Source of the DNA: an uncultured Gammaproteobacteria bacterium
GTDB lineage: Bacteria > Patescibacteriota > Patescibacteriia > UBA1544
Assembly (NCBI GenBank): GCA_964652585.1
Contig: CAZZDA010000001.1
Coordinates: 1 to 56,859 of the forward strand
Length of the DNA stretch: 56,859 bases
Reading direction: 5' to 3'
Position numbers and translations under genes: made by a program. Below the pieces are notes generated by a model. It had not been told where the DNA came from, did no database searches, and was given only the letters and a program-made list of their open reading frames with translations. Position 1 is the stretch's first letter; each line of letters starts with the position of its first letter. Shown here one piece after another: positions 7,738 to 53,313 of the stretch.

Positions 7738-7844
7738 AGCAATCTTAAAACTTGGAACTTAAAACATGAAACATGCTCTTTAAATCTTTATATTCTTGCA
7801 TTTTTATATTCATATCATTCCGACTGCAATGAAATAATATTTTT

Positions 7845-10685
7845 TTATTTCTTGTCATTTTGCCCTGCCATCCACTCTACCACCGCATTTAAATCTGAAT
7901 CGCCATCTTTTCCTTTTGATTCCAAATATCCTTGTAGCGCCAAAGTGTCGTCACCCATCGCATCTAAATTTGCACGAAGATTTCCCATATTACCCGCTAA
8001 CTTGCGTAATCCCTCGCTCTGATTCTGTTTACCCAGCTTGCCCATAGCAAGCGACAACGGTGCGAGCAATTTTTTCAGCATGTACAACTGATTGACTGAA
8101 AAATATTGACCTCCTGCCATTTGAACCCTTGATGTCGGTACGCTTGGCGTATCGCCACGCGCTTCACCGCCTTGCATAACCGCGTTAATTTGTTCCTCAT
8201 TGACTTCCCGAATATCATTTTCAATATTGACCTCCGCTGATAAATCACCAGTATTTTGACGAGCTTCAACCTGCTGTACCATAGCATCAGCATCACTTGC
8301 TGCCTTCTCATACGCACGCATTTTGGTAACATGTCCGCCGGAATCATCCTTATCAACAATCGCCTGTGTTACCTCATCGGTCTTGGAATACAATTTCTCA
8401 TGATTAATATAATGTGCAATACGCTCCGCCTGATTATTTTCATCTGTCGCACCCGCACCGTGCGCGCGTTCATGCGTAAGCGTTTTTATCACGTCGCGCA
8501 TACCATAATTTTCAATCTTGCCACCAGCGCCGCGCCGCGTATCATACCCAACCGCTCCTGAATTCACCAGCTCCATTTTTTGTCCGCCGCTGGCGGTAAT
8601 ACTGTCTATCCTGTCTTTCGCTCTTCTTATACGTTCCAGTTTTTGTTCTTGCGCTCGTGATTGTTTACCTACTCCGCTTCCTAGAGCATCAATTTTTCTC
8701 TTGAGAGCTTTGGAAAGTGATTCCGCGACACCCTTAAATTGATCGCTTGAAATTGGAACACCTTTGGTACGACTATAATCGGATCCGTCTTTCGGCGCGT
8801 TGGCTTGCTGCAAAGCGTCTTTAAAATCCTCGTCGTCAAAATCCATCGCAATCGTGCTCCCTTTTCCGTGACCCGCAGAAATTTCTCCTTTTCCCCGCGG
8901 TAAATCATGTTCATCAGGCGTCGCCATCCTCGCCGCTCCTTCGGAAGGAAAATTTGGAAATTGTTTTTCCCATCTTTCTTCAGCCTTTTCTCGCTCTGTC
9001 TGAGGTTCTATCTTTTTAGTATTTTTATTCGTATCACTAAAACCCCTACCTGCACCAACCGACGAACGCATATATTTCATAGCATCAATAAAATCAGAAT
9101 CTTTATACCCTTTTGACAATGCTTCCGCACTTCCCGCTTGCAACTCTTCGACAGTCACTTGCCTGTCTTTATTTTCCGGTTTTTTATTATATGTGCCCAA
9201 CGCACTCTCGGCATATTTCATTGCTTCCGAACGAGTTGGCGCACCCTCCTCTTTAAACATTTCCGCACGACGTAATTCTGCTTTTTTTCGAGCAGCTTCA
9301 GCAAATGCTTTTACTTTATCTTTCGGATTTCCAATAAATTTCCTTGTCTTTGCAATTGCCTCTCTGTCTATTTGTTGCTCCCTATTATGTCGCTCATTCA
9401 ATCCAAATCCTTTGCCTATACCTGATCGAGTAAACGTACCTTTTCCAGATTTCCAACCTGCTTTTGTCCAGCCTGCAGCCTTCCTACCCCCAAGTATTCC
9501 TGCACCTGCCGCCACTCCAGCAAGCGCCACACCACCGGTTGCCGCGCCAGCAGCCGTAAGCGCAACTTTTCCTTTATGTCGTCCCGCAAACTGCTGCACT
9601 CGAGTACTTGCTTGTCGTAACGGCTTCATTCCACTACTATAAATTGCTCCTGCATATTTTGAGGCTGCGCCGCCAAGTTGCTGGGTAACCGCTATAGCTC
9701 CTATAAGAAAACCGAGGAACATAATATACGGTACGATATTATCCGCACAGGTAATAGCAGTATCTAACGCGCAAAGCACTTCACTTGAACCCTCACCACT
9801 AACAGCATTTATTTTATCTGTCAAATTAGTTTTTGTTGTCTGCATGGTAGAAAGCGCTAACCACACAAAAAACACCAATATTGGACCACTTACCACATAT
9901 TGAGTAAAGCCACTCCACCATTGAGCAGCATATTTTTGACCGCCGGGAAATACCTGCAACAAGTATGCAAAAGGCGAGAGCACGGCGTATATCCAAAGCA
10001 TTACAATACGAAAGACAATCACTACAACCAGTATTGCCATCACTAACATTGTTAAAAACATGGCAAAGCTGGCAAAAAGACTTGCAACCACAAGATTAAA
10101 CCATTGAGCACCATCTGATTTTTTAGTAGCTGCAGAAAAGCTCGCATATTCTTTAATGGCAAAAAGATTTACAAAATTTCCTGCCCCATTCACATCTCTT
10201 ATAGCATTTGCAAACGTCAACATTACTACTTGTCCTAAATCTATAAGGAATCCCGTAATACTTAAACTAAAATAAATAAGCACTGTCATGATCATAAGCT
10301 TCGGCAATGTTCGCCGCCAGTGATACGATTCTATATGTAATACCGTTGAAATCGCAATAACTAACAATATCACCACAAAAAACATCATGCAGAGCTGTCG
10401 TACGATGTAAAATCCAGTAAGAACAATATCCTCATTAACAAAGTTGTTGTATTGAGCTAAAGAAATAAAAGCATTAATAAGCAAACTGGTCAGCGAGCCC
10501 ATTAATTTAATAAATATGCTGGCTAACTCTCCAGTAACAGTATAGACAAAGTCGGGAGTACCGGCAGACGATATATGTATATAACCAAAAACACCAGCGA
10601 GTAATATAAAAAACAATACTACCAACAAGAATGGTTGCCTCCTATAAATTGAGATGGGGTGTATTTTGTTTATACGCAATACCAC
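7845..10685 (-). CDS. polytopic membrane protein, VirB6/TrbL-like N-terminal half plus long charged C-terminal domain (946 aa)
   Basis: The first roughly 350 aa contain many hydrophobic helices, followed by Gly/Ala-rich segments and a charged domain. It lies in the operon with PrgI/VirB4. The track start is GTG. Confidence 0.6.
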   Translation of the reverse strand: MVLRINKIHPISIYRRQPFLLVVLFFILLAGVFGYIHISSAGTPDFVYTVTGELASIFIKLMGSLTSLLINAFISLAQYNNFVNEDIVLTGFYIVRQLCMMFFVVILLVIAISTVLHIESYHWRRTLPKLMIMTVLIYFSLSITGFLIDLGQVVMLTFANAIRDVNGAGNFVNLFAIKEYASFSAATKKSDGAQWFNLVVASLFASFAMFLTMLVMAILVVVIVFRIVMLWIYAVLSPFAYLLQVFPGGQKYAAQWWSGFTQYVVSGPILVFFVWLALSTMQTTKTNLTDKINAVSGEGSSEVLCALDTAITCADNIVPYIMFLGFLIGAIAVTQQLGGAASKYAGAIYSSGMKPLRQASTRVQQFAGRHKGKVALTAAGAATGGVALAGVAAGAGILGGRKAAGWTKAGWKSGKGTFTRSGIGKGFGLNERHNREQQIDREAIAKTRKFIGNPKDKVKAFAEAARKKAELRRAEMFKEEGAPTRSEAMKYAESALGTYNKKPENKDRQVTVEELQAGSAEALSKGYKDSDFIDAMKYMRSSVGAGRGFSDTNKNTKKIEPQTEREKAEERWEKQFPNFPSEGAARMATPDEHDLPRGKGEISAGHGKGSTIAMDFDDEDFKDALQQANAPKDGSDYSRTKGVPISSDQFKGVAESLSKALKRKIDALGSGVGKQSRAQEQKLERIRRAKDRIDSITASGGQKMELVNSGAVGYDTRRGAGGKIENYGMRDVIKTLTHERAHGAGATDENNQAERIAHYINHEKLYSKTDEVTQAIVDKDDSGGHVTKMRAYEKAASDADAMVQQVEARQNTGDLSAEVNIENDIREVNEEQINAVMQGGEARGDTPSVPTSRVQMAGGQYFSVNQLYMLKKLLAPLSLAMGKLGKQNQSEGLRKLAGNMGNLRANLDAMGDDTLALQGYLESKGKDGDSDLNAVVEWMAGQNDKK

Positions 10686-10712
10686 AGCGCTAAATGTATA
10701 AAAACAATATAT

Positions 10713-11231
10713 TTACTCTGGACACTCCAGAATACTAACAACTTCTACCAAAAAATCATGTACTACATCGCCACTACATACATAGGTAGCAGTTAGTGTT
10801 AAAAGAAGTTGTACAACAATACCTATAATGAAAGAAAGGAGTGATAGTATAAGTATGATTTTCAATACTTTTTTCCACAAAACCTTTTTTACCACTGTTT
10901 TTGTAGACTGTTTTATTTTTTGTTTTACAACTTGTTGAGCTTTTTTTTTCACCTGTTCTTGCAATCTTTGACTTACCCTATCCTGTTGCATCACTGCCTC
11001 TGCCTGCCTTTGTTGTTGCTCTGTTTCCAGTGCTTGCTGCTGTGCTACCGCCTCTTGCTCCGCCTGTACTTGCTGTTCTTGTTTTGCAATTTCCTGCTGA
11101 TGCCGTATTTTTTGAATAGACGGTCCTTCATTTCCTTCCAAACTTCCTGCGAGTTTTGCTCGCTGTCGTGCAAAAGCAAAATCCTTTGCATACACTCCCT
11201 CTTGTTCTTGTTGTTCGGTTTCTTGCGACAT
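10713..11231 (-). CDS. hypothetical Gln-rich coiled-coil protein with C-terminal TM anchor
   Basis: ATG-started ORF with a QQ/EQ-rich central region and the hydrophobic stretch ILILSLLSFIIGIVVQLLLTL. Confidence 0.6.
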   Translation of the reverse strand: MSQETEQQEQEGVYAKDFAFARQRAKLAGSLEGNEGPSIQKIRHQQEIAKQEQQVQAEQEAVAQQQALETEQQQRQAEAVMQQDRVSQRLQEQVKKKAQQVVKQKIKQSTKTVVKKVLWKKVLKIILILSLLSFIIGIVVQLLLTLTATYVCSGDVVHDFLVEVVSILECPE

Positions 11232-12938: not shown

Positions 12939-12961
12939 AGATATTTCTGTGAATATATATA

Positions 12962-13043
12962 CTTTTTCTCCTCAACATCGGGTATACTCCCGTCTCCGCC
13001 AGCTGGCAGATCCTCCTCGACACCCGATGTTTTCCCGAAAAAG
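12962..13043. repeat. palindromic element family 1, copy B (intergenic)
   Basis: Sequence is ctttttctcctcAACATCGGGTatactcccgtc...ctcgACACCCGATGTTttcccgaaaaag. Confidence 0.9.
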
Positions 13044-13484
13044 TTAAAATTGATTTTTAGTAAATTTCCACAATATAGTATCTCCCGGTTGTACGAGATA
13101 CGCACTTGCACCTATTTCCGCATATATTCCATTCACCCAATACTGCCAATATGTTGTACCACTATTTGCAACACCACCAATAGATTCTATAAACACGCCC
13201 ATTCCTTCATATTCCCGGTAGTCAACCGAAATATTTTCCTCTTGCAATGTTCTCTGAAGCACCTTCCATAACGTTTCATTTTCTTCAAAGGCAGTATGGG
13301 GAAAAGTTTGCAGCTCATCATTCCCAAAGTCAATCAGAAAATGTACAACAGATATTTTTTCGCCTTCTGTTTGTATAACAGATGAAGCATCAAAGACCGG
13401 AGCAGGCGCTACAACACTCCTCCCAAGCAAAAGACCCGAAGCAAAAAAAATAAGTGCGATGATAATTGTGTGGAGATGTTTCAT
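13044..13484 (-). CDS. DUF4430 (transcobalamin-beta-like) domain secreted protein
   Basis: Signal-like N-terminus. C-terminal YWQYWVNGIYAEIGASAYLVQPGDTILWKF is typical of DUF4430. The ATG at 13484 has GAAGGA 8 nt upstream. Confidence 0.7.
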   Translation of the reverse strand: MKHLHTIIIALIFFASGLLLGRSVVAPAPVFDASSVIQTEGEKISVVHFLIDFGNDELQTFPHTAFEENETLWKVLQRTLQEENISVDYREYEGMGVFIESIGGVANSGTTYWQYWVNGIYAEIGASAYLVQPGDTILWKFTKNQF

Positions 13485-13525: not shown

Positions 13526-14098
13526 TTATCGTTTCCACCATCTTTTCTTTCGCGCATGCAGCACGTGCCCCAGTCTATTCATCAAACTTTTTCTCCTTTG
13601 TGTTCGCATATACCATAGCACACCTAGCCCGCCAACCGCAATCAGTACAAAGATGTTTATAAGGATATTGCGCAACAAGAGTAATTTTTCAAGAGGCGCT
13701 CCACTTACCGTCACGCGCAGCGGTACCTTAAGACCCGATCCCGCATTAAAACTTTTCTTATCCAATGGATAGCCCACCACTGAAAGCATTGTAGTAAAAA
13801 TCCCTTCTTTTTTCGGATTCACCAATACACGTACGCGCTTTTTTTCTCCAGCCTCTAAACGTATCTCTCTCTGTTGCACACCTATCCAGTCAGTTAACTC
13901 ATCTGCCGAAACGATGTAGATGCCCGGTTCTTGCGCAGTATTTGTTATAGTGAGCTCTGTTAACACCTTACCTCCTTTTTGTGCTGACACATTGATCACA
14001 GCAGGCGAAACACCAACACCTATCGCAAATACTGCGGTATTTGCGATAAGGACAGCGGCAATTACTATAACTATAACCAATACTGTTTTATGGTACAT
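13526..14098 (-). CDS. hypothetical membrane-anchored beta-sandwich-like protein
   Basis: N-terminal signal/TM segment, a beta-rich middle region, and a C-terminal TM followed by a basic tail. Confidence 0.6.
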   Translation of the reverse strand: MYHKTVLVIVIVIAAVLIANTAVFAIGVGVSPAVINVSAQKGGKVLTELTITNTAQEPGIYIVSADELTDWIGVQQREIRLEAGEKKRVRVLVNPKKEGIFTTMLSVVGYPLDKKSFNAGSGLKVPLRVTVSGAPLEKLLLLRNILINIFVLIAVGGLGVLWYMRTQRRKSLMNRLGHVLHARKKRWWKR

Positions 14099-14116
14099 AC
14101 ATATTACTGTGTCATA

Positions 14117-14189
14117 CTTTTTCTCCTCAACATCGGGTGTACTTCCGTCGCTTCACTCCTACTCGACACCCGATGTTTTCCCAAAAAAG
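14117..14189. repeat. palindromic element family 1, copy C (intergenic)
   Basis: Sequence is ctttttctcctcAACATCGGGTGTacttccgtcgcttcactcctactcgACACCCGATGTTttcccaaaaaag. Confidence 0.9.
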
Positions 14190-14200
14190 TGCCTAGTTGT

Positions 14201-16000
14201 TTATTCTATTCCCGTTCCCCAAAAAATGAGTGTACCGTTTTTTTCGCCATAACTTGTATAGTCGTCCGGTACAGGTAAAGATACCACAACAACTTCCTCT
14301 TCTGATTTTTGAATATGTGTTTCGTAGAGCGGCCACAATTGGCTTGCGACATACAAAGCATCGGTAAATATCTCATTACCTTCTACGATACTTTCAATAT
14401 ACAGATCGCTCGTACCCGTATTGGTAAGTGTCAGATCAACCATGCCTTTTTCACCGGGTTTGAGCGCTCCGAAATGTACCTGTCCGCCTGACACCGTAAA
14501 AGCAAGCTCCGGAGCATGAGCGCCGCCATCATCACCGCCACCAACAATATCTACCTTCAAATCAACTTCTTGCGATACGCCGCCGATAACAACCTCCACC
14601 GTGTTACTGCGAATATGCCCCGCTTTTTCCGCCCATATCTGCCACTTAGGTGTCAGACACCTAAGTGGAAATTTGCCGTATTCGTCGGTTGCTGCAGTTG
14701 TCGTGTCGTTACCACAATATACAGTTGCGCCTTCAAGCGGTTGCCATGCAGCAGGGTCGCCTGTCAACGCCTCTACGATAACCATCACTTCTTCTTGTTC
14801 TTGAATATGTGTTTTATCTACCGTAAGTCTCGTAAGTATCGTATTCCCCCAGGTGCCATACGCCCACAATACCTCATCTCCTGTTTGAAGCGTGTAATCC
14901 GCGGCACCAACCGAAGGGCTTTGCCAATTTACCCAATACATCCAGCCTGCAGATCCTTCTGCCATATCACTGCCAATAGTTTTGAGATAGGGGCCAAATG
15001 AAGTATCTTCAATCACATACGTAAAGCCGCATAGATCTGCCGCGTTTCGCACGACCTCAAGCGCTGTGGTTCCCGAAATATTCTTATCGCAGACCGTTTC
15101 CGTACTTCCTTCAATACGTACCTGAAATTGCTGTTCTTCCGCATTTTCCACATACGCTAAAGGAAAGCTTTTGCCGGTTAGTGCGACTACCGCGTGTGCT
15201 GTAATATTTGTATAAATATTTCCATCAGATATTGTCCAAAGATATCCTCCATTTTCTTGCTGTAAAGACTCAAGATGACTTTTTGGCGTTGCACCTCCGT
15301 CAACAACCCACTCATCTAGTGATGTACCAAGCTTATTGAATGCCCACAATACCCACGCGTCAGACCCGCCATCTGACTCGCTTCCAACGCTATAAGGAAA
15401 GCCGCCGTCAGAGTTTTGAACAGACTTCAAATAGATGAGAGCATTTTGTATGACTGCATCGTCTTGAGCAATACCCGCTTCTACCAAAGAAACAACAGCG
15501 GCTGCGGTGTCATTGGTATCACTGTCCGAACCAACCGCGTAGCCCCAACCACCATCAACATTCTGATTTTGGAGAATAAAATTTTTGCTCTGCTGCACTA
15601 CTTGCGCGCCAACCGTATAGCCTGCGGATCTTAATGCTAAAATTCCCCAGATATCATCATTTAAAAGATCCGCGCTTCCCAGTTGCGTGCCGTCATACAA
15701 TCCCGCCAATCCGTCAACCAAATCCGTACTCGCAAAAGTACGCGGATTTTCACCAACTGCAACTATTGCCAAAATACGCTTTGCATAGTCGGTTGCCGTT
15801 GTTCCCGAAAATTCTTGCAAATATGTTATATCGCCGACATCAGAGCCAGCTGCAACCAAGGCTTGTGTTATCCATTCGTCAGCAGACTGAGCTTGTAAAT
15901 ACGTTACGGCTTCCGGAATTCCCGCGGAAACAAAAGAGAAAGTAAAAAAGAGAAGTATACTAGGAAAAATAAAAAATGCGATAAATTTTTTATAAGACAT
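14201..16000 (-). CDS. secreted prenyltransferase/squalene-oxidase-repeat (alpha-alpha toroid) protein fused to DUF4430 and Ig-like domains
   Basis: Signal peptide, DGGWGYAVGSDSDTNDTA and DGGFPYSVGSESDGGSDAW repeats, and the DUF4430-like GWMYWVNWQSPSVGAADYTLQTGDEVLWAY. Start moved to ATG 16000 because the track start lies in a repeat unit. Confidence 0.7.
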   Translation of the reverse strand: MSYKKFIAFFIFPSILLFFTFSFVSAGIPEAVTYLQAQSADEWITQALVAAGSDVGDITYLQEFSGTTATDYAKRILAIVAVGENPRTFASTDLVDGLAGLYDGTQLGSADLLNDDIWGILALRSAGYTVGAQVVQQSKNFILQNQNVDGGWGYAVGSDSDTNDTAAAVVSLVEAGIAQDDAVIQNALIYLKSVQNSDGGFPYSVGSESDGGSDAWVLWAFNKLGTSLDEWVVDGGATPKSHLESLQQENGGYLWTISDGNIYTNITAHAVVALTGKSFPLAYVENAEEQQFQVRIEGSTETVCDKNISGTTALEVVRNAADLCGFTYVIEDTSFGPYLKTIGSDMAEGSAGWMYWVNWQSPSVGAADYTLQTGDEVLWAYGTWGNTILTRLTVDKTHIQEQEEVMVIVEALTGDPAAWQPLEGATVYCGNDTTTAATDEYGKFPLRCLTPKWQIWAEKAGHIRSNTVEVVIGGVSQEVDLKVDIVGGGDDGGAHAPELAFTVSGGQVHFGALKPGEKGMVDLTLTNTGTSDLYIESIVEGNEIFTDALYVASQLWPLYETHIQKSEEEVVVVSLPVPDDYTSYGEKNGTLIFWGTGIE

Positions 16001-16006
16001 ATATAT

Positions 16007-16077
16007 TGTCATTCCCGCGAAGGCGGGAATCTATGATATGAGTATTTATATGGATTCCCGCCTTCGCGGGAATGACA
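16007..16077. repeat. hairpin element family 2 (GGATTCCCG..CGGGAATGACA), two inverted units
   Basis: Units are tgtcattcccgcgaaggcgggaatc and ggattcccgccttcgcgggaatgaca. Confidence 0.85.
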
Positions 16078-26910: not shown

Positions 26911-27124
26911 GGGATTCCTCCGCTCGTCTTCGCCTCGGTCGGAATGACAGAATGGGAAAGCTCATTCAGAATGACAAAGTGTGTATGGATTCCCGATCAG
27001 GTCGGGAATGACATGTTTTTTTAATGTTTCAATGTTGCGATTCTTTCTCTTGTCATTCCCGATTTAGTCGGGAATCTAGAATCTTTTTTCTATTGTATGG
27101 ATTCCCGCCTGCGCGGGAATGACA
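26911..27124. repeat. cluster of four family-2 hairpin units in a convergent intergenic region
   Basis: Units at 26911..26949, 26987..27013, 27051..27076 (inverted) and 27099..27124. Each is GGATTCC..(hairpin)..GGAATGACA. Confidence 0.85.
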
Positions 27125-27982: not shown

Positions 27983-28082
27983 TGAAGTTGACATTCCTGA
28001 CACCATCATGTGTAAAAATCTTTTTATAGTATACCACAAATTTCTCATAACTCACAACTTGGAACTCAGAACTTTTAAATCC

Positions 28083-30333: not shown

Positions 30334-31065
30334 CTATCTCCCTCTCTGTACACCAAACTTTATGACGCCTTGGCGAAGAATGGTTATCACGCCGTCGTCT
30401 TCCACTTTCGCAATAGTTGATGCTTTTTTTCGTGGGAGCGTGCCGCCGTCAATATAGAAGTCAGGATTGTCTTTTTTATTGTCATTCCCACTCATGTCAA
30501 ACATCGGATGTTTGACAAAGGTGGAGGGAGTGATTATTGGTGCGTTGTCGCCAAATTGTTTTTTGACCGCGGTAATAGTGTAGCACATAGGTTTTCCGGA
30601 AATGTTCGCACTGGTTGCGATAAGTGGTTTGCCTATTTTTTTAGAAAATTTGCGGGCAATAATATTATCCGGCACACGAATGGCAATAGCACCACCTGTC
30701 ATTCCGAGTCCATTCGACAAGCTCAGGATAAACTCCGCCGAGGAATCCCTTTCTTTAGATACAAGGGATCCCTCCGCTCGTCCGCTTATCAGCGTACTCG
30801 GTCGGGATGACAGAATGGGGTGATATTCCTCCCTCAAAGGAAGAATGAGGGTTAGGGGGCCGGGCCAGTGTTGTTTTGCCAGCTTTTTTGCTGTAGGTGA
30901 AAAGACACAATACTTTTCCGCCATAGCAAATGACGCCGCAATCCATGGAAAGGGCTTGTTGTTCGGTCGGCCTTTTATTTTTGCAATACGTTTATGTACT
31001 TCTGGATCAAATGCATCGCCCCCAATTGCGTACGCAGTGTCAGTTGGGTATATAATAATTTTCAT
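30334..31065 (-). CDS. tsaC: YrdC/TsaC-domain L-threonylcarbamoyladenylate synthase-like protein with about 40-aa repeat-derived insertion
   Basis: YPTDTAYAIGGDA, KGRPNNKPFPWI, WPGPLTLILP, IAIRVPDN and LIATSANISGKP motifs. Confidence 0.7.
   Translation of the reverse strand: MKIIIYPTDTAYAIGGDAFDPEVHKRIAKIKGRPNNKPFPWIAASFAMAEKYCVFSPTAKKLAKQHWPGPLTLILPLREEYHPILSSRPSTLISGRAEGSLVSKERDSSAEFILSLSNGLGMTGGAIAIRVPDNIIARKFSKKIGKPLIATSANISGKPMCYTITAVKKQFGDNAPIITPSTFVKHPMFDMSGNDNKKDNPDFYIDGGTLPRKKASTIAKVEDDGVITILRQGVIKFGVQRGR
30697..30812. repeat. composite family-2 element (two opposed units) inside the tsaC-like CDS
   Basis: tgtcattccgagtccattcgacaagctcaggataaactccgccgaggaatccc plus gggatccctccgctcgtccgcttatcagcgtactcggtcgggatgaca. 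Translated as HPILSSRPSTLISGRAEGSLVSKERDSSAEFILSLSNGLGMT. Confidence 0.85.
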
Positions 31066-31147: not shown

Positions 31148-32083
31148 TTACTCACACTGCTTTTGTAATACAGCAACACGAAATCCATAACCACATTTGC
31201 CAGTATTACAGTCTGCATTTTCATCACATTTATCGCCAATATTCCCTTTGGTTCTGCAACAACCAGCATATTGTTGCTGTCCAGGTTTAGCACCTAAAAT
31301 ATCACATCGCTCTGCCATATTACATATATATGCGGAATCACTGCACTGACTATCATTATTATCTGTACATGCTTTGCTTTGCCCCGCTAGCGTTCCTTTA
31401 CAAAATGGTTGCTCTGTGCAACTGCCCGAAGATCCATCACATCGCCAGTTGCTAGGAAGATTTAATGCTGCAGGTGAACAAGTTTCTTGAGTAATACCTC
31501 TAGTTGCAACGTCTTGTATACCTGATATTTCCTTACACTGTGTTTCGGTGTATGGACCTTTTGCAGTATTGTAATCAATTCTACATACACAACAATTACT
31601 AACCACATCTTTTCTATTTATATCTGTAACCCCTATAGGTCCTAAAGTTACCAAGTCAGGACTTATGGTATTTAAAATAATAAATGACGCGAGGAGAAGC
31701 ACCATACCGGAAATTGCGCCAGTGATGTACTCCTTTGCTTTGCCGATACGTTCCATACTCCCACCGGAAGTGAGCCACATGATACCGCCGTACATCATCA
31801 TGATCACTGCCAAAATTGCGGTGCCGGGAACCGCGAAATTGAAAAAGGCAGAGATGTAGTCGCCGATGAGGGAATCTGAAACTTCTACATTACTTCCTTC
31901 AGAAAATCTTCCTGATCCGGGAATAGATATTCGAGGGCTAAATTTTAATGCATCAGCCGCAAAAACCGCAAGAGGAGATAGTAGAAAAAAAGCAACCATA
32001 AAAACAAGTGCCAGTTTATGGAAAGGGATTCCTCCACTTCGGTCGGAATGACAGTATGTTTGTTTTACTCCAAGTTTCGCCAT
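31148..32083 (-). CDS. TrbC/VirB2-like pilin-type protein with about 170-aa Cys-rich C-terminal extension
   Basis: Signal-like LALVFMVAFFLLSPLAVFA. Two-helix core FNFAVPGTAILAVIMMMYGGIMWLTSGGSMERIGKAKEYITGAISGMVLLLASFIIL. The tail has many Cys residues. The start is uncertain because the track N-terminus overlaps the toxin gene and a repeat. Confidence 0.55.
   Translation of the reverse strand: MAKLGVKQTYCHSDRSGGIPFHKLALVFMVAFFLLSPLAVFAADALKFSPRISIPGSGRFSEGSNVEVSDSLIGDYISAFFNFAVPGTAILAVIMMMYGGIMWLTSGGSMERIGKAKEYITGAISGMVLLLASFIILNTISPDLVTLGPIGVTDINRKDVVSNCCVCRIDYNTAKGPYTETQCKEISGIQDVATRGITQETCSPAALNLPSNWRCDGSSGSCTEQPFCKGTLAGQSKACTDNNDSQCSDSAYICNMAERCDILGAKPGQQQYAGCCRTKGNIGDKCDENADCNTGKCGYGFRVAVLQKQCE
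32025..32053. repeat. family-2 hairpin unit
   Basis: Sequence is gggattcctccacttcggtcggaatgaca. Confidence 0.8.
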
Positions 32084-32718: not shown

Positions 32719-32779
32719 ATATTGTATAGGTTAGATATCATGATTGTAACACGAAAAGGAAGAATGTGCAAAAAAAAAG

Positions 32780-32807
32780 AGATTCCTCCGCTTCGGTCGG
32801 AATGACA
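32780..32807. repeat. family-2 hairpin unit
   Basis: Sequence is agattcctccgcttcggtcggaatgaca, directly 3' of the leuS stop. Confidence 0.8.
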
Positions 32808-32814
32808 GAAAGAG

Positions 32815-35310
32815 CTAGAGAACAATACTCACTAATTTGCCTTGCACGACAAGAATCTTTTTTGGTTCTTTGCCATCAAACCACTTTTGTACGAGTTTAT
32901 TTTCTAATGCTATTTGCTTGAGCACCTTTTCAGATATGCTTGCGTCAACTGTAAATTTCGCCCGTACTTTACCGTTTATTTGCACCACTATTTCTCTTAC
33001 TTTCTCTTGGATGAGTTTTTTATTATATTGTGGCCAGGATTGGTGGAAGATGCTTTCTTTATTGCCCACATCTTCCCACAACTCTTCCGCCAAATGCGGC
33101 GCGAATGGTGCGAGTAGTTTTAAGAGTATTACGTACTGTTCTTTTGTTATTGATTCCGCTTGAGAAAACGTATTCACCAAGATCATCATGGCTGATACCG
33201 CGGTATTAAAACGAAAATTTTCTATATCTTCGGTTACTTTTTTTATGGTTCGATGTAAAAGCTGAGTTACTTCTTTAGCGGTCGCACCACTCTCAACCAC
33301 AGCAGCCCCAAGTGGAACGACCGCTACACGAGATTGCAGTTGCCACACTTTATCCAAAAACCTCCTCACACCAACAATACCCTTAGTGTTCCACGGCTTC
33401 GCATCTTCAAATGGTCCCATAAACATTTCATAGAGACGCATCGTGTCTGCTCCATACTCTTCTACCACTTCATCAGGATTCACTACATTACCCAAAGACT
33501 TGCTCATTTTTTGCCCGTCTTCTGCAAGGATCAAGCCTTGATTTTTAAGCTTGGCAAAGGGTTCATCAAAGTCAATATAGCCTGCATCACGCAACACTTT
33601 TGTAAAAAAACGTGCGTAGAGCAAGTGCATCACCGCATGCTCCGCGCCGCCCACATACATATCCACCGGCAGCCACTCTTTAATATTTTTTTTATCTGCA
33701 AAAGCCTTGGTGTTGTGCGCGTCCGTATAGCGAAAAAAGTACCAACTGGAACAGACAAACGTATCCATAGTATCCGACTCTCTTTTGGAGGGTGTATTGC
33801 AAGATGGGCACGCGACATTATGAAAACTTTTTGATTGCGTGAGAGGTGATTCGCCGGTTGGTCGAAAGTCAACGTCGGTCGGCAACTCTATCGGCAACTG
33901 ATCCTCCGGTATAGGAACCTCACCACAATGATCGCAATAGATAATAGGAATTGGCGCACCCCAATAGCGTTGGCGCGAAATAAGCCAATCGCGCAAGCGA
34001 TACTGCACTGTTTTTTCTCCTTTCACAAACTTAGTGATTTCCCACTTAGCTTTTTCACTATCCGTGCCGTCAAACTTTCCGGAGTTGATCATGGTGCCGG
34101 AGTCGGTGTAGCATCTATTGTTACTTTCCTCCTCAACATCGAGTGCATATCCCTCTCGCTTTTTAACACCCGATGTTTTCCCGGAAAGCGGTTTTATCAC
34201 TTCTCTTATCGGTAAATCATATTTTTTTGCAAACTCGTAGTCCCGTTCATCATGCGCGGGTACTGCCATAATAGATCCCGTACCATAGTTTGCAAGTACA
34301 TAATCAGCGATAAAAATTGGCAGCTCTTCATTGTTTGACGGATTCACTGCAACAAGACCTTGCAATCGCACTCCTGTTTTTTCTTGTGCCACATTCGTGC
34401 GCTCAATTTCCGTATGTCGCGCCGCGTGCTTCATATACTCCTCAACCTCTTTCCAATTGGCAATATGCTCTTTAAGTTGTTCTACCAAATCATGCTCAGG
34501 CGCCAATACCATATAGGTTGCGCCAAAGAGCGTATCAGGCCTGGTAGTGAAAACTTCTATGGTTTCTGCAACTTCTTGAGAATCTTTTACAAGTGCACTT
34601 CGTACTTGAAATTTTATTTTTGCTCCTTCAGATTTTCCTATCCAATTCTTCTGCATGAGCTTGATGGGTTTCGGCCAATCTATTTTTTCCAACCCTTCCA
34701 ACAACTGTTCCGCATAATCAGTGATCTTAAAGAACCATTGCTTCAATTGTTTTTGCACCACTTCATTTTTACACCGTTCGCACGCGCCATTAACTACCTG
34801 CTCATTCGCCAGCACGGTTTTGCAGCTCTCACACCAGTTCACCGCAGCTTCTTTGCGATACGCAAGTCCGCGCTTGTAGAGTAAAAGAAAAAACCACTGC
34901 GTCCATTTATAATATTCCGGTGATGAGGTATTTACTTCCCGATTCCAATCGAGCCAAAATCCAAAGCCTTTAATTTGCCGTCGAAAGTTTTTAATATTTT
35001 GTTCTGTTGTTTCTTTCGGATGTGCCCCGGTTTTGATAGCATAATTTTCCGCCGGCAATCCAAACGCATCCCACCCCATAGGGTGCAACACTTCATACCC
35101 TCGCATCGCTAAGTATCGAGCTGTGATGTCAGTCGCAATATATCCCAATGGATGTCCCACATGAAGTCCGGCAGCGGAAGGATAAGGAAACATATCCAAA
35201 AGATATTTTTTCGGTTTCTTTGAGCTATCGTCCGCCCTATGCAGTTGCTGCTCATCCCATATCTTTTGCCACTTTGGTTCTATATCTTTATGATTGTATC
35301 GTTGATCCAT
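32815..35310 (-). CDS. leuS: leucine--tRNA ligase
   Basis: YNHKDIEPKWQKIWDE, HVGHPLGY (HIGH), the KMSKS motif as QKMSKSLGN, and editing-domain motifs. ATG at 35310. Confidence 0.95.
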   Translation of the reverse strand: MDQRYNHKDIEPKWQKIWDEQQLHRADDSSKKPKKYLLDMFPYPSAAGLHVGHPLGYIATDITARYLAMRGYEVLHPMGWDAFGLPAENYAIKTGAHPKETTEQNIKNFRRQIKGFGFWLDWNREVNTSSPEYYKWTQWFFLLLYKRGLAYRKEAAVNWCESCKTVLANEQVVNGACERCKNEVVQKQLKQWFFKITDYAEQLLEGLEKIDWPKPIKLMQKNWIGKSEGAKIKFQVRSALVKDSQEVAETIEVFTTRPDTLFGATYMVLAPEHDLVEQLKEHIANWKEVEEYMKHAARHTEIERTNVAQEKTGVRLQGLVAVNPSNNEELPIFIADYVLANYGTGSIMAVPAHDERDYEFAKKYDLPIREVIKPLSGKTSGVKKREGYALDVEEESNNRCYTDSGTMINSGKFDGTDSEKAKWEITKFVKGEKTVQYRLRDWLISRQRYWGAPIPIIYCDHCGEVPIPEDQLPIELPTDVDFRPTGESPLTQSKSFHNVACPSCNTPSKRESDTMDTFVCSSWYFFRYTDAHNTKAFADKKNIKEWLPVDMYVGGAEHAVMHLLYARFFTKVLRDAGYIDFDEPFAKLKNQGLILAEDGQKMSKSLGNVVNPDEVVEEYGADTMRLYEMFMGPFEDAKPWNTKGIVGVRRFLDKVWQLQSRVAVVPLGAAVVESGATAKEVTQLLHRTIKKVTEDIENFRFNTAVSAMMILVNTFSQAESITKEQYVILLKLLAPFAPHLAEELWEDVGNKESIFHQSWPQYNKKLIQEKVREIVVQINGKVRAKFTVDASISEKVLKQIALENKLVQKWFDGKEPKKILVVQGKLVSIVL
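33277..33325. repeat. palindromic element family 3, copy 3, in-frame inside leuS
   Basis: Sequence is agcggtcgcaccactctcaaccacagcagccccaagtggaacgaccgct. Translated as AVVPLGAAVVESGATA. Confidence 0.9.
34124..34188. repeat. palindromic element family 1, copy D (shorter, more diverged), in-frame inside leuS
   Basis: Sequence is ctttcctcctcAACATCGAGTGcatatccctctcgctttttaACACCCGATGTTttcccggaaag. Translated as LSGKTSGVKKREGYALDVEEES. Confidence 0.8.
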
Positions 35311-35441
35311 ATTGTACATCCTATGCTTTTTTACTAAATAAATCAACAACTGTCCGACATCGCAAGCTACCTACAGAACAAACTCACGACATTCGATGTC
35401 GTGAGTTTTGGCAAACAGGAACAGACACGTCACGCGTCCCG

Positions 35442-36047: not shown

Positions 36048-38942
36048 TTACAGCGCTTTCTTCAAATATTTTCCCGTATAGCTTTTTTTCACCTTTACTA
36101 CGTCTTTTGGTGTTCCAACAGCCACCACATATCCGCCCTTATCTCCACCCTCCGGTCCCAAATCAATAATCCAGTCCGCGGATTTTATCACATCTAAGTT
36201 ATGCTCAATAATAAGAACGGTATTTCCCTTGTCTACGAGCGCGTGCAAAACACCCAACAAGCGCTTTACATCCGCAAAGTGAAGTCCGGTTGTTGGCTCA
36301 TCTAAAATATAGAGTGTTTTGCCAGTTGAACGACGCGAGAGTTCAGTAGAGAGCTTCACGCGCTGGGCTTCACCTCCCGAGAGCGTGGTTGCAAACTGTC
36401 CTAAGTGAATATATCCCAATCCCACCTCGTTCATGGTTTTCAGCTTGTCAAAAATTGTTGGAATAGTTTCAAAAAACACCAGCGCTTCCTCAACCGTCAT
36501 CTCCAAGACATCGGCAATTGTTTTTCCTTTGTAGTGAATTTCCAATGCTTCCTGGTTGTACCGTTTGCCATGGCACTCTTCACACTCCACATAGACATCC
36601 GGCAAGAATTGCATCTCAATTTTCACCAGACCTTCGCCTTGACATGCTTCGCATCGTCCGCCCGTCACGTTAAAGCTAAACCGCCCCGGTCTATAACCGC
36701 GAATTTTTGCTTCGGGTAAATTTGCAAATAGATCGCGAATCGGCGTAAAAACACCGGTATAGGTTGCGGGGTTTGATCTTGGCGTTCTGCCAATTGGCGA
36801 CTGGTCTATGGTAATAACCTTATCAATATGCTGAATTCCCGATATGCCTTTATGCTTGCCAGGTATATTTTTTGCTCGGTAAAAATGTTTGGAGAGCGCT
36901 TTACCTAAGATCTCCGTCATGAACGTTGATTTGCCGGATCCTGAAACACCGGTCAAAGAAACAAATTTCCCCAAAGGAATGTTCACGTCAATATTTTTCA
37001 GGTTAAAGGCACTTGCCCCATGAACCGTCAGTATGTTTCCCGATCCCTTGCGATGCTTCTTTGGCGTTGCGATACTCTCAGCACCTGAGAGATATTTCCC
37101 CGTAGGTGATTTCGGATTTTTCTCAATAGCATTTGGGGTTCCATGCGCAATAACCTCGCCTCCATGAGCTCCCGCGCCCGGTCCAATGTCAATGACCCAA
37201 TCAGCTGATCGTATGGTTTCCTCATCATGTTCTACCACAATAACCGTATTTCCTAAGTCCCTTAATGACTTCAGTGTTGCAATAAGTTTCGTATTATCCC
37301 GTTGATGAAGGCCAATGGATGGCTCGTCCAAAATATAGAGTACGCCAACGAGCGCTGAGCCAATTTGCGTAGCCAGGCGAATACGCTGTGCCTCGCCTCC
37401 GGAAAGCGTCGCGGCAGTTCTGTCCAACGTTAAATAGTCAAGTCCCACATTACGCAAAAAAGTAAGTCGGGTGGTAATTTCTTTCAAGATCTGTTTTGCG
37501 ATCAGTTGTTCACGAGCAGAAAGTGCGTTTTCGTTTACTGATGTTTTTTTCTTACTCGCAGAAAGCGCCTCAAAAAATTGTGTAACTTCGGCAATGCTTA
37601 ATGAAACGATCTCATAAATATTTTTACCAATAACGGTAACAGCAAGTGCCGTGGGCTTCAACCGTTTACCGGTACATACGGGGCATGGCAGTGTACGCAT
37701 GTATCGCTCAATTTCCCGTCGAACATAATCAGATTCTGTTTCCTTGTAGCGGCGCTCAAGATTTGGAATAACACCCTCAAACGCTGTCCAGTAATCACCC
37801 GAAAACTTATTGCCCTCATAATCTACTTTATATTGCTTATTACCGGTGCCATAGAGGATCAAATCAAGTTGTTCTTTCTTTAATTTTTCAACCGGTACTT
37901 TTGTGGGAAGCTTTTCTTCTGCCGCAACCGCCTCTATGATTTGATAATAAAATCCTTGATTAGCAGTCATACGCGCCCAAGGCTGAATCGCTCCTTCGGC
38001 CAATGAAAGACGCTTATTTGGTATGATGAGATCTTTATCAACAATAAGTAAATTGCCAAGGCCGCTACAGCGCTCACATGCTCCATGCGGTGAGTTAAAC
38101 GAAAAATCACGCGGCTCAAATTCCGGCAGCGATATAGTGCACACCGGACAAGAAAGATGCTGCGCAAAAAGATGTTCTTCGCCCGTATCCGCACGCTCTA
38201 CCACGACAAGGCCATTCCCCAGATCAAGTGCTTGTTCTAAAGAATCTTTCAGGCGAGTGCGCTCCCCTTCTTCCATATGTTGTTTCGCGTCAATCGATGT
38301 CGGTGTCATAACAAAGCGGTCAACCACCACATCAAGTGTATGTTTTTTCTTTTTATCAACACTCAGATCCTGTGCTTCCTCAAGACTATACATCACCCCA
38401 TCAAAACGCACTCGGGCGTATCCCGCTTTTGCAATTTCAGCAAGCGCATTTTTATGCTCGCCTTTTTTATCACGCACCACGGGAGCCAAGAGCAGTATCT
38501 CCGCTTCCTTCCCTAGCTGCGCAATAGACTCAGCGATCTGGTCCAGTGTCTGTTTTTCAACCAGCCGCCCGCATGTAGGGCAGTGCGGATGTCCTATGCG
38601 CGCGAACAACAGACGTAAATAGTCATACACTTCCGTCACCGTACCAACCGTTGATCGAGGATTGTGCGATGTGGACTTTTGATCAATGGAAATTGCGGGA
38701 GAAAGCCCTTCAATTTGATCCACGTCCGGCTTATCCATCAACCCTAAAAACTGCCGCGCATAAGCAGATAGTGATTCTACATAACGCCTTTGACCTTCCG
38801 CGTAAATAGTATCAAAAGCAAGTGAAGACTTACCGGAACCAGAGAGTCCGGTTATGACTACAAATTTATCACGAGGGATATCAATGTCGATATTTTTAAG
38901 ATTGTGCACACGGGCGCCCCGGATGCGTATGGTAGAAGACAT
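36048..38942 (-). CDS. uvrA: excinuclease ABC subunit A
   Basis: [23 protein letters not shown], two ABC modules, zinc-finger cysteines, LSGGEAQR motif twice. Confidence 0.95.
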
Positions 38943-39023
38943 GTAATTCTTGGAACTTAAAACTTGGAACTCATAACTTAAATAAGAGTCGTTGCGTACC
39001 GTAGAAGATAATGCTTCCTTACT

Positions 39024-39800: not shown

Positions 39801-40766
39801 TTATGAACTATGAGATTTCGTGATCTTTTCTACAATCGCCTTTCGCTCCTCAGAACTATAGTATTCAATAACGCACCTACCTTTTCCTTTTGCATCTTGA
39901 AAAATTACTTTTGTACCCAACACCCTCTCTAATTCTTTTTCTTCCGCACGAAGCTCCGGCGTTTTCGTAGACGAACGCGTATGTCCAGCAACGGCGATTC
40001 TTTTCCCGGTATGCTGCGCCGTTTCCGCAACACTTAAGCCGTGCGTAGTGATCTGTTGAAAGACGCGCATTTGCTCCGCTTCTGTTGCAAGTCCTGCCAG
40101 AATTTTGCCATGCCCTTCCGTAATTTTTCCAAATTTCAATGCATCCTGAATAGGCTGTGGTAGATTCAAAAGACGTATGCTATTTGCAACTTTCGCGCGT
40201 GATTTGCCAATTTTTGCGGCAACTGTATCTTGTGTCAATCCAAATTCTTCCATCATGCGCTTGTATGCTATCGCTTCTTCAATGGGGTTAAGGTCCGCAC
40301 GCTGTACATTTTCAATAACCGCCAGTTCCAACTGTTGTTCAGCATCAACTGCCGTATGCAAAACAACCGGAACTTCTTGAAGACCGGCAAGCTCTGCCGC
40401 ACGCAGACGGCGCTCACCGGCAATAAGCTCATAGTTTTCAAGATCTTTTTTTACAACAACCAAGGGTTGTAAAATACCGTGTCGTTTTACAGAGCTCACC
40501 AGCTCTTCAATAGCCTGTTCTGTAAATTGCTCGCGCGGCTGATAAGGATTTGCCGTAATATTTTTCAGTGGTACGCTCATACTGCCATTGTACAACACTC
40601 CTTGCGTGTGTTGTTTTTTGTTTTGCGCATGTCCATCACCAACGGTAGATGCAAGAGGTATGCCAAAACTTTTTGCAGCAGGCGCCGCACCACTCGTATT
40701 TGCAGAAGATTTTTTACTTGGTATAAGTGATCCGAGTCCTTTGCCCAGTCCTTTTTGTATAGGCAT
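39801..40766 (-). CDS. parB: ParB/Spo0J chromosome partitioning protein
   Basis: GILQPLVV, LIAGERRLRAA and an HTH segment. Confidence 0.9.
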   Translation of the reverse strand: MPIQKGLGKGLGSLIPSKKSSANTSGAAPAAKSFGIPLASTVGDGHAQNKKQHTQGVLYNGSMSVPLKNITANPYQPREQFTEQAIEELVSSVKRHGILQPLVVVKKDLENYELIAGERRLRAAELAGLQEVPVVLHTAVDAEQQLELAVIENVQRADLNPIEEAIAYKRMMEEFGLTQDTVAAKIGKSRAKVANSIRLLNLPQPIQDALKFGKITEGHGKILAGLATEAEQMRVFQQITTHGLSVAETAQHTGKRIAVAGHTRSSTKTPELRAEEKELERVLGTKVIFQDAKGKGRCVIEYYSSEERKAIVEKITKSHSS

Positions 40767-40833
40767 AATCGTACGAAATTACAAATTTCAAAATCCAAAT
40801 GACAAATGAATGTAAAAAATTATTTATGTATCT

Positions 40834-41609: not shown

Positions 41610-41682
41610 GGCGGTCGTTCCATCCATTCGACAAGCTCAGGACAGGCTTATGGTCGATATGGTTGAGAGTGGTGCGACCGCT
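41610..41682. repeat. family-3 element with a nested family-2-related unit
   Basis: ggcggtcgttcca[tccattcgacaagctcaggacaggcttatggtcgatat]ggttgagagtggtgcgaccgct. Confidence 0.7.
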
Positions 41683-51094: not shown

Positions 51095-51649
51095 ATGCAA
51101 AAGTCAAAAAAACACTCATCAACGCTCGCGGTTAATAAGCGAGCCCATTATGACTTCGATATTCTGGAAACATTTGATGCCGGTTTAGTGTTGACCGGAT
51201 CTGAAGTAAAAGCCGTCAAAAATGGTCATATTAAGATCGTTGAAGCATATATTACCCTCAAAAACACTTCTCTTCCGGCAAAAAAACAGCCTGCGACAAA
51301 AAAAGAAAAAAAGGTGACTATGTCCGCACGTACAAAAACCGAACTTTATCTGACCAATGCCTATATTTCTCGTTATAAACCGGCAGGTCCTGACCTTTCC
51401 TATGACCCAACACGCCCGAGAAAGCTACTTCTCCATAAAAAAGAAATAGCCACTCTTGCCGGAAAAAAGACCCAGAAAGGGTTGACAATGGTGCCTTTAA
51501 AGGTGTATACTAGTCGGGCTCTTGTGAAAGTTACTTTTGGTCTTGCCCGAGGAAAAAAGAAGTATGATAAGCGGCAAGCTCTCAAGGAGCGCGAAATAAA
51601 GAAGCGTATCACAAGCGTTCTTCGACAAGGGGATGAAGGGCTTCGATAG
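51095..51649 (+). CDS. smpB: SsrA-binding protein SmpB (with Lys-rich internal insertion)
   Basis: NKRAHYDFDILETFDAGLVLTGSEVK, YDPTRPRKLLLHKKEI, GLARGKKKYDKR. Confidence 0.9.
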   Translation: MQKSKKHSSTLAVNKRAHYDFDILETFDAGLVLTGSEVKAVKNGHIKIVEAYITLKNTSLPAKKQPATKKEKKVTMSARTKTELYLTNAYISRYKPAGPDLSYDPTRPRKLLLHKKEIATLAGKKTQKGLTMVPLKVYTSRALVKVTFGLARGKKKYDKRQALKEREIKKRITSVLRQGDEGLR

Positions 51650-52878: not shown

Positions 52879-52962
52879 TCAAAATTACCATTACAACCAT
52901 TCAAATTATAAATAGAACGTTATTTGTTATTTGGATTTTGACATTTGGGATTTTTTAACATT

Positions 52963-53313
52963 ATGCCTCGAGTAAAACGCGGAACCGTGCGCACCAAAAA
53001 AAGAAAAGCGCTGCTTTCCAAAACAAAAGGGTACAGATGGGGACGTAACAGTCTTGTTCGCGCCGCAAAAACCGCGGTTAAAAAAGCTGGGCAACATGCC
53101 TTTCGCGATCGCCGCAACAAAAAACGCACGATGCGTGCGTTGTGGAATGTGCGCCTGAATGCCGCTGTACGCGAAGAAGGTATGACCTATTCCACCTTTA
53201 TACACGCACTCAAAAAAGCTAATATCGCGCTGGATAGAAAAGTCTTAGCGCATTTAGCAGCCGACAAACCGGCAGTATTTAAGAAAATTGTTGCACAAGT
53301 AAAGTCCAGCTAA
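52963..53313 (+). CDS. rplT: 50S ribosomal protein L20
   Basis: [28 protein letters not shown]. Confidence 0.95.

Follow-up and report, generated by a model that had tools for sequence, protein, structure and literature searches.

How does an essential gene come to carry palindromic DNA repeats within its reading frame? The question is raised by leuS, the gene for leucine-tRNA ligase, on a complete 56.9-kb contig (CAZZDA010000001.1; below, the window) of a bacterium of the Patescibacteria, also called the Candidate Phyla Radiation (CPR). An original prediction, made from the DNA letters alone, held that leuS contains in-frame copies of two different palindromic elements, both of which recur in a second, unrelated gene. 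We found that the two segments are indeed dispersed palindromic repeats and not conserved parts of LeuS: they are missing from the 24 other Patescibacteria LeuS proteins of our alignment, and the closest relative lacks them in its syntenic genes. In our judgement the two families are probably lineage-specific, non-autonomous palindromes resembling repetitive extragenic palindromes (REPs) or miniature transposable elements with inverted repeats (MITEs), which survive within genes only where they are in frame, free of stop codons and structurally harmless.

The host gene (32815..35349, minus strand) is an open reading frame (ORF) of 844 aa, for which the gene caller gives a product of 831 aa starting from a Met 13 codons in. 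It encodes a bacterial leucine-tRNA ligase with a score of 1066 bits against TIGR00396 (leuS_bact), about twice the equivalog cut-off of 548, and matches the Thermus thermophilus LeuRS 1h3n with E = 2.5e-235. The motifs HIGH (H63, G65, H66), KMSKS (614-618) and TTRPDT (268-273) as well as the editing-site Asp D367 are intact and invariant across 25 aligned LeuS proteins of Patescibacteria. Homologues were searched in an index of 5.8 billion proteins, and the top LeuS matches all came from metagenome-assembled genomes of Patescibacteria or from metagenome contigs. The closest one (P0002) is 70-72% identical, and its contigs (L001 and L007) share about 43 kb of syntenic sequence with the window.

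When the contig was compared with itself, short palindromic repeats of three families emerged. There are four copies each of families 1 and 3 in 57 kb, five of the eight being coding and three intergenic. Their core motifs never reached the observed copy number in dinucleotide-preserving shuffles of the contig; the 22-mer core of family 3 (GGTTGAGAGTGGTGCGACCGCT), which has four exact occurrences, was matched in 0 of 100 such shuffles.

Family 3 has the consensus AGCGGTCGTTCCACTTGGGGCTGCTGTGGTTGAGAGTGGTGCGACCGCT with the outer stem GCGGTCG/CGACCGC. The copy in leuS (33277..33325, minus strand) comprises 48 nt from GCG to GCT, exactly 16 codons, and is read as AVVPLGAAVVESGATA (aa 676-691), directly preceding LLHRTIKKVTEDIE. 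As predicted, it matches the reverse complement of 7406-7454 at 47 of 49 positions (96%), forming a 49-nt inverted repeat with a blastn-short E-value of 7.8e-16. This partner lies in a 600-aa ORF, ORF600 (5935..7737, minus strand), together with a third copy at 7069..7117. Both are in plus orientation, antisense to the gene; the copy at 7069..7117 reads AVAPLSTAAAESGTTA and the copy at 7406..7454, which uses another frame, reads KRSHHSQPQRPQVERPL. The fourth copy is intergenic (41611..41682, plus strand) and ends 13 nt upstream of the likely start codon of parA. It had been described as a half copy (41635-41682), but is a full copy of 72 nt with a variant loop of 37 nt instead of the usual 13 nt. 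The four copies are flanked by TA/TA, TC/TC, AA/TT and AG/TA. They differ from each other by 4-12%, compared with an amino-acid identity of 44-85% between the host genes and those of the nearest relative, which supports the proposed recent spread for this family.

Family 1 has two stems, the outer one ACTTTTTC/GAAAAAGT and the inner one ACATCGGGTGT/ACACCCGATGT, and its loop varies. Its copy in leuS (34123..34190, 68 nt) is in plus orientation and gives PLSGKTSGVKKREGYALDVEEES (aa 387-409) when the minus strand is read, so that the protein shows (P)LSGKTSGVKKREGYALDVEEES between IREVIK and NNRCYTDSGTMINSGKFDG. The copy and its peptide were as predicted, with the start shifted by one position from 34124-34188 (nhmmer 34123-34188, E = 5e-17). 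A second copy lies in ORF600 (6381..6464, minus strand) and reads GFFSSTSGVLPSSPSNNSSSTPDVLPKK. Two further copies, both in plus orientation, are intergenic: one of 84 nt (12961..13044) fills the spacer between a DUF6580 gene and a DUF4430 gene, and one of 75 nt (14116..14190) sits in the spacer between the genes at 13526..14098 and 14201..16012. No flanking duplication is visible for this family. The description of the copies as near-identical DNA does not hold for the family-1 copy of leuS, which is set apart from the other copies by several substitutions and by the loss of 15 nt from its loop.

Folding of the copies gave strong hairpins in seven of nine cases (-21 to -39 kcal/mol, z -4.2 to -6.6 against shuffled sequence). 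The weaker folds are those of the leuS family-1 copy on the plus strand (-16.4 kcal/mol, z -2.9) and of the copy at 7069-7117 in the sense of ORF600 (-16.4 kcal/mol, z -1.0). On the sense strand of leuS, the RNA hairpin reaches -31.3 kcal/mol (z -4.6) for family 3 and -26.9 kcal/mol (z -5.4) for family 1. The outer stem of family 1 is kept paired by three compensatory double changes, two of them (T-A to C-G) within the leuS copy; 94.8% of the cells are paired, a share that falls to 38-57% if one slides the partner column.

Relative to the sense strand, the leuS copies of both families are opposite in orientation to those in ORF600, exactly as first reported. The accompanying claim that the two orientations give unrelated peptides applies only to the copy at 7406-7454, the sole family-3 copy with an unrelated peptide. 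The peptide AVAPLSTAAAESGTTA of the other ORF600 copy (7069-7117) is identical to AVVPLGAAVVESGATA of LeuS at 10 of 16 positions, and the family-1 peptides of either orientation have ...TSGV...(P/L)DV... in common, with PDV or LDV at the second motif. Because the units are near-perfect palindromes, reading them in the symmetric frame yields a similar peptide in either orientation. Copies run in either orientation, use three different reading frames and also lie between genes; this excludes a motif at the protein level and identifies them as DNA elements.

Position in LeuS and comparison with relatives

Both sites in LeuS are hypervariable in length and sequence among the 25 aligned Patescibacteria proteins. 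Site 1, which holds family 1, is a long surface coil that follows the conserved segment AHDERDYEFA...IREVI and belongs to the C-terminal part of the connective peptide 1 (CP1) editing domain, as judged from the alignment with T. thermophilus LeuRS. Site 2, which holds family 3, lies in the C-terminal helical domain with the anticodon-binding fold, as the loop that joins helices 655-674 and 689-710. An AlphaFold model of LeuS (mean predicted local distance difference test score, pLDDT, 83; predicted template modelling score, pTM, 0.79) fell below a pLDDT of 50 in three segments: the spurious N-terminal extension, 391-410 and 679-687. The latter two are the only internal ones and, except for residue 410, are contained in the element-encoded residues 387-409 and 676-691. 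Alignment and model thus agree with the placement in variable loops that had been proposed, and judging from the model extra residues should be harmless at both sites.

The closest relative lacks all eight copies of families 1 and 3 in its 43 kb of syntenic DNA, which also contains no dispersed repeat family comparable to either. Seven sites, all but the one upstream of parA, were compared with this relative. Five of them are gapped, including two shorter spacers, and two hold unrelated sequence of similar length. The family-1 site of LeuS corresponds to an 18-aa gap in the closest orthologue. At the family-1 site of ORF600 (6381-6464), a 14-aa gap is found in 11 of 11 aligned homologues, with an additional 2-aa gap in the relative, and the orthologue of the relative (P0122) has a 10-aa gap at copy 7406-7454. 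The spacer with the copy at 12961-13044 has 105 nt in the window as opposed to 58 nt in the relative, and that with the copy at 14116-14190 has 102 nt as opposed to 21 nt. Across 11 syntenic orthologue pairs, four insertions of 6 aa or more were specific to the window. Two are terminal differences of a pilin-like ORF; the only internal ones are the family-1 insert of LeuS and an insert in tsaC/sua5 (30334-31065), a gene for the synthesis of the tRNA modification threonylcarbamoyladenosine (t6A).

The insert in tsaC/sua5 is a palindrome of the third type, family 2. It measures 116 nt (30697..30812, with no strand assigned), is in frame, has TGTCATCCCGA and TCGGAATGACA as its ends, folds with z = -2.9 and adds 35 aa compared with the orthologue of the relative. 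It extends the phenomenon to a second housekeeping gene. ORF600, too, contains a unit of this third family in frame. It hosts four in-frame repeat units in its middle region, which has no invariant residue across the aligned homologues; this variability explains the tolerance of four units. In the homologues, the parts encoded by the elements are represented by gaps.

Two candidates for repeats on the side of the relative were rejected. A supposedly old orthologous family-3 copy in its ORF600 (PLVTAAPSAEAIS compared with PLSTAAAESGTTA) had a DNA similarity no better than shuffled sequence (P = 0.51), and the relative's own 14-aa insertion in LeuS is not a palindrome (z = -0.5).

Pattern scans returned chance matches only: a family-3 20-mer hit a single high-GC Gemmatimonadaceae gene among the GTDB species genomes, the gapped family-1 pattern hit a Bacteroidota-like terminator and a dehydrogenase gene in the JGI metagenomes, and neither family pattern matched in IMG/VR. 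These results indicate that the families are very restricted to one lineage. All the element peptides joined in one composite and, separately, the TsaC insert peptide had no match among the 5.8 billion proteins, a size for which these queries are too short.

LeuS proteins of the CPR vary in other respects as well. The leucine-specific insertion domain of about 55 residues before KMSKS (582-636 in T. thermophilus LeuRS) is missing here (aa 611-614) and likewise in 24 of 24 aligned CPR homologues. Many CPR homologues are 100-300 aa longer and contain extra Pfam domains, namely NUDIX (PF00293) and alpha/beta-hydrolase (PF06821, PF00561, PF12697), and an IS200-like Y1 transposase domain (PF01797) lies within the homologues P0017 and P0082. 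In another CPR genome (GCA_028717685.1, contig L010), leuS contains in-frame copies (10693-10721 and 11102-11152) of AT-rich, non-palindromic intergenic repeats with counterparts at 5780-5808, 3185-3235 and 1789-1816. Their peptides are FSIFNFQFS and IKNEKLKIKNHNLKFKN; one is located in the post-editing loop that holds family 1 here and one in a second loop. A peptide similar to FSIFNFQFS recurs in the homologue P0026, and in P0013 this loop holds a stretch rich in Lys and Asn that is only loosely similar (about half of the residues match).

Proposed mobility, reading frames and rival explanations

According to the mechanism that we favour, hairpins of about 48-84 nt would have multiplied recently in this Patescibacteria genome, landing between as well as inside genes; with about 90% of the genome coding, most insertions would strike genes. 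Copies in genes would then persist only if they keep the frame, are read through without a stop codon and lie at a structurally permissive position. The elements in LeuS would be translated into 16-23 extra or replacement loop residues of an enzyme that remains functional. Our best guess for the driving enzyme is a Y1 transposase of the IS200/IS605 or RAYT (REP-associated tyrosine transposase) type, which would be encoded elsewhere in the genome and recognise the hairpin without duplicating the target. A hairpin kept by compensatory change and the lack of target duplications would fit the recognition of single-stranded hairpins as in REP/RAYT and IS200/IS605 systems. All coding copies, including the family-2-type units, are in frame and stop-free (7/7), and VAVVPLGAAVVESGATAK and EGYALDVEEESNNR are predicted as candidate peptides that span the inserts.

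Several observations weigh against this scenario. Among the 29 ORFs scanned in the window, none matched a Pfam family of transposases, recombinases or Y1-type enzymes (of its 40 ORFs with 150 aa or more, 10 were left out), and the translation of the inserts is an inference. Flanking direct repeats are inconsistent, with TA/TA and TC/TC at two family-3 copies and none at the other two. All eight copies are known from one contig, four per family, and an empty-site strain is not available, since the nearest LeuS is only 70% identical. The family-3 loop of LeuS comprises 24 aa compared with 25 aa in the closest orthologue and thus shows no net gain, and the relative has unrelated sequence of similar length at the ORF600 copy 7069-7117; because of these similar-length segments, a clean insertion is not demonstrated at either site. 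Without the family-3 element, the LeuS loop would shrink to about 8 aa, or to 11 residues from W to LLH compared with 13 in the shortest homologue. Some native residues were therefore probably lost or replaced at this site.

Among the alternatives, the one that survives best is that the elements themselves are adapted for coding, beyond passive filtering by the host: their length would be a multiple of three, five of six frames would be free of stops and bland loop peptides would result in either orientation. We regard this as unlikely, although some features point in its direction. The two long family-1 copies, one of them intergenic, have five of six frames open and exceed the controls (P = 0.001-0.009 against shuffles, 0.02 against random contig windows). 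The lengths of the intergenic copies (84, 75 and 72 nt) and of the family-3 units (48 nt) are each divisible by three; of the three family-3 copies that are coding, two lie exactly on codon boundaries; and the palindrome gives similar peptides in both orientations. Family 3, however, also has five of six frames open without any stop avoidance beyond its composition (P = 0.3-0.45), as such openness is predicted by a G+C-rich sequence. The shorter family-1 copies have only four of six frames open and the leuS family-1 copy with 68 nt is not a multiple of three; moreover, the element boundaries are uncertain by 1-2 nt and the sample consists of eight copies. The hints from length and frame are suggestive, but do not establish adaptation at the level of the element, and filtering at the level of the host would be sufficient. 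The earlier idea of an element readable on both strands finds no support in the six-frame check for family 3 and weak support in the long family-1 copies (P = 0.001-0.02, n = 2). What holds of the original prediction is its kind, recently spread palindromes tolerated in frame in an essential gene, while the unrelatedness of the peptides and the two-strand readability were overstated.

A second possibility, which we consider improbable, is that the hairpins serve the host as RNA or DNA signals, such as transcript stabilisers, RNase or attenuation sites separating co-directional genes, or translational pause sites at the transitions from one protein domain to the next, and are functional in leuS. 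The intergenic copies exactly fill spacers between co-directional genes and the stems are maintained through compensatory changes, which is equally expected if transposition needs the hairpin. On the sense strand of leuS, mismatches become G-U pairs, making the mRNA hairpins about 10 kcal/mol more stable than the antisense ones, but the sense strand of ORF600 carries the weaker orientation. The copies are also missing in the closest relative despite the same operon layout. A role of the intergenic copies as intrinsic terminators was rejected, as the transcribed strand lacks a T-run after the hairpin, and Rfam gave no credible match to a known RNA family at the elements (two chance matches below E = 1, one overlapping the copy at 12961). 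The GAGGAG of family 1 is too distant from the start codons (24-29 nt) to act as a Shine-Dalgarno sequence.

That the elements remain untranslated, by ribosomal bypass or removal from the mRNA as in phage T4 gene 60 or the 'byp' elements of Magnusiomyces mitochondria, is very improbable. Strong hairpins within coding sequence would suit such a process, and the bypass of mobile palindromic elements has a precedent; nevertheless, an in-frame and stop-free state of seven out of seven coding copies would be unnecessary if they were skipped, and the loops in which they sit are places where additional residues do no harm. An artefact of assembly or a chimera, to which repeats can give rise through misjoins in metagenome assemblies, is hardly credible, given that LeuS homology and gene order are unbroken on either side of both elements, the order matches the relative over 40 kb, and the copies differ mutually by substitutions and indels. 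A template and variable repeat pair of a diversity-generating retroelement was likewise rejected, since the copies are palindromic, inverted and partly intergenic and their differences are not adenine-specific.

Other repeats and the surroundings of ORF600

ORF600 belongs to a large family, with its closest relative in a Patescibacteria contig. A total of 2256 homologues were found at E <= 0.001, with lengths of mostly about 420-620 aa among the best 150 listed, and no Pfam family matched. The gene is part of a conserved cluster resembling type IV secretion or pilus systems (window 2107-10685; L007 7137-15033), which encodes a VirB4/TraG P-loop ATPase and PrgI-like, TraC-like and TrbL-like proteins. 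In the relative, the cluster is followed by a serine recombinase and helix-turn-helix regulators (L007 16782-19523), beside a duplicated tRNA-like sequence (L007 16492-16837).

The element in tsaC/sua5 is of the TGTCATTCC...GGAATGACA type. The same gene contains an older, degraded unit at 30470-30500 (MSGNDNKK), aligned with SLLRGNDKEK of the relative. The hairpin family GATTCCCGC..GCGGGAATGACA is marked by the motif GGRATGACA, which occurs 12 times compared with 0.9 expected and also counts as evidence for the third family, that of the tsaC/sua5 element. Its units are intergenic at 16007-16077, 26941-27124, 32022-32054 and 32776-32810, as single copies or inverted doublets, and one unit is in frame in ORF600 at 6796-6844 (KRDFSTALGMI). 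This family also occurs in the relative (L001 12660 and 14029).

AT-rich repeats of the AACTTGGAACTTAAAAC type are found in promoter-proximal spacers at 7744-7770, 28042-28077, 38942-38982, 40752-40807 and 52922-52977. The peptide FTKPENWQLGTGNRQQEQ in the ORF600 orthologue of the relative resembles a translated repeat of this type. SmpB (51095-51649; 184 aa) has a Lys-rich insertion of about 25 aa (TSLPAKKQPATKKEKKVTMSARTKT) that splits its Pfam match.

Known palindromic elements and the significance of in-frame copies

The closest known system in terms of behaviour is that of the Rickettsia palindromic elements (RPE). As summarised in PMC10969869 with reference to Ogata et al. (2000, 2002), RPE-1 to RPE-10 are palindrome families that sit in the reading frames of unrelated genes where the fold of the protein allows it. 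By that account, both systems comprise several dispersed, multicopy palindrome families in a small, gene-dense genome, with many copies in frame in unrelated housekeeping genes as extra peptide segments (which here would require their translation) and others intergenic. Fold-compatible in-frame insertions are found here in LeuS at two sites, in ORF600 at three and in TsaC with the family-2 type. The elements differ from the RPE so described (about 100-150 nt) in being two to three times shorter (48-84 nt), and also in belonging to a different phylum, in the eight copies known and in peptides that are too short for a domain. A NCBIfam scan of LeuS, ORF600, TsaC and the two ORFs spanning 12961-13044 detected no RPE-type domain, in a release whose content of RPE models was left unchecked, and returned only the LeuS and TsaC models together with chance matches.

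REPs are 20-40 nt long, essentially extragenic and usually have a GTAG or CGTC head (PMC3733652). The elements of the window share with REP/REPIN-RAYT systems the single imperfect hairpin with conserved stem and variable loop, the compensatory change and the lack of a consistent target-site duplication. Unlike REPs, they measure 48-84 nt, have five of eight copies within genes and no conserved tetranucleotide head, and no RAYT gene is among the 29 window ORFs scanned; they are thus not REPs in the strict sense.

In-frame fusions of MITEs and genes are known from QMITE1 of Coxiella, intragenic enterobacterial repetitive intergenic consensus (ERIC) sequences and Anabaena MITEs (PMC5896051, PMC10969869). 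Like bacterial MITEs, the elements studied here are non-autonomous and multicopy, have inverted-repeat termini in the form of the outer stems of families 1 and 3, and sometimes overlap or extend ORFs. MITEs are typically 100-400 bp long, with target-site duplications and a recognisable parent insertion sequence, whereas here the whole element is one hairpin and duplications are inconsistent. No parent insertion sequence with shared termini was found in the window, and the scans of GTDB, JGI and IMG/VR gave only the chance matches described above.

A full-text literature search, the coverage of which was incomplete so that absence is unproven, found no description of such elements in Patescibacteria or CPR, in line with what had been stated at the outset. 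What appears to be new, by analogy, is the presence of RPE-like in-frame palindromes in Patescibacteria, the kind being already known from Rickettsia.

So far, in-frame 'selfish DNA' in essential genes has mostly been seen as a peculiarity of Rickettsia. The same pattern is now met in a free-standing Patescibacteria lineage, with three unrelated palindrome families, two insertions in LeuS and one in TsaC. This bacterium is, like Rickettsia, reduced, gene-dense and host-dependent, and the parallel suggests that in-frame copies follow generally from a small genome in which space between genes is scarce. On the practical side, such inserts inflate the apparent divergence of proteins, create spurious ORFs and can mislead marker-gene alignments and phylogenies of the CPR. 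The insertion of elements may be one route by which the variable loops of CPR proteins arise. If Patescibacteria even harboured RPE-like selfish palindromes that are adapted to translation, being multiples of three, poor in stops and giving a similar loop peptide in both orientations, which we think doubtful, these would regularly supply the core proteins of such minimal genomes with new surface loops.

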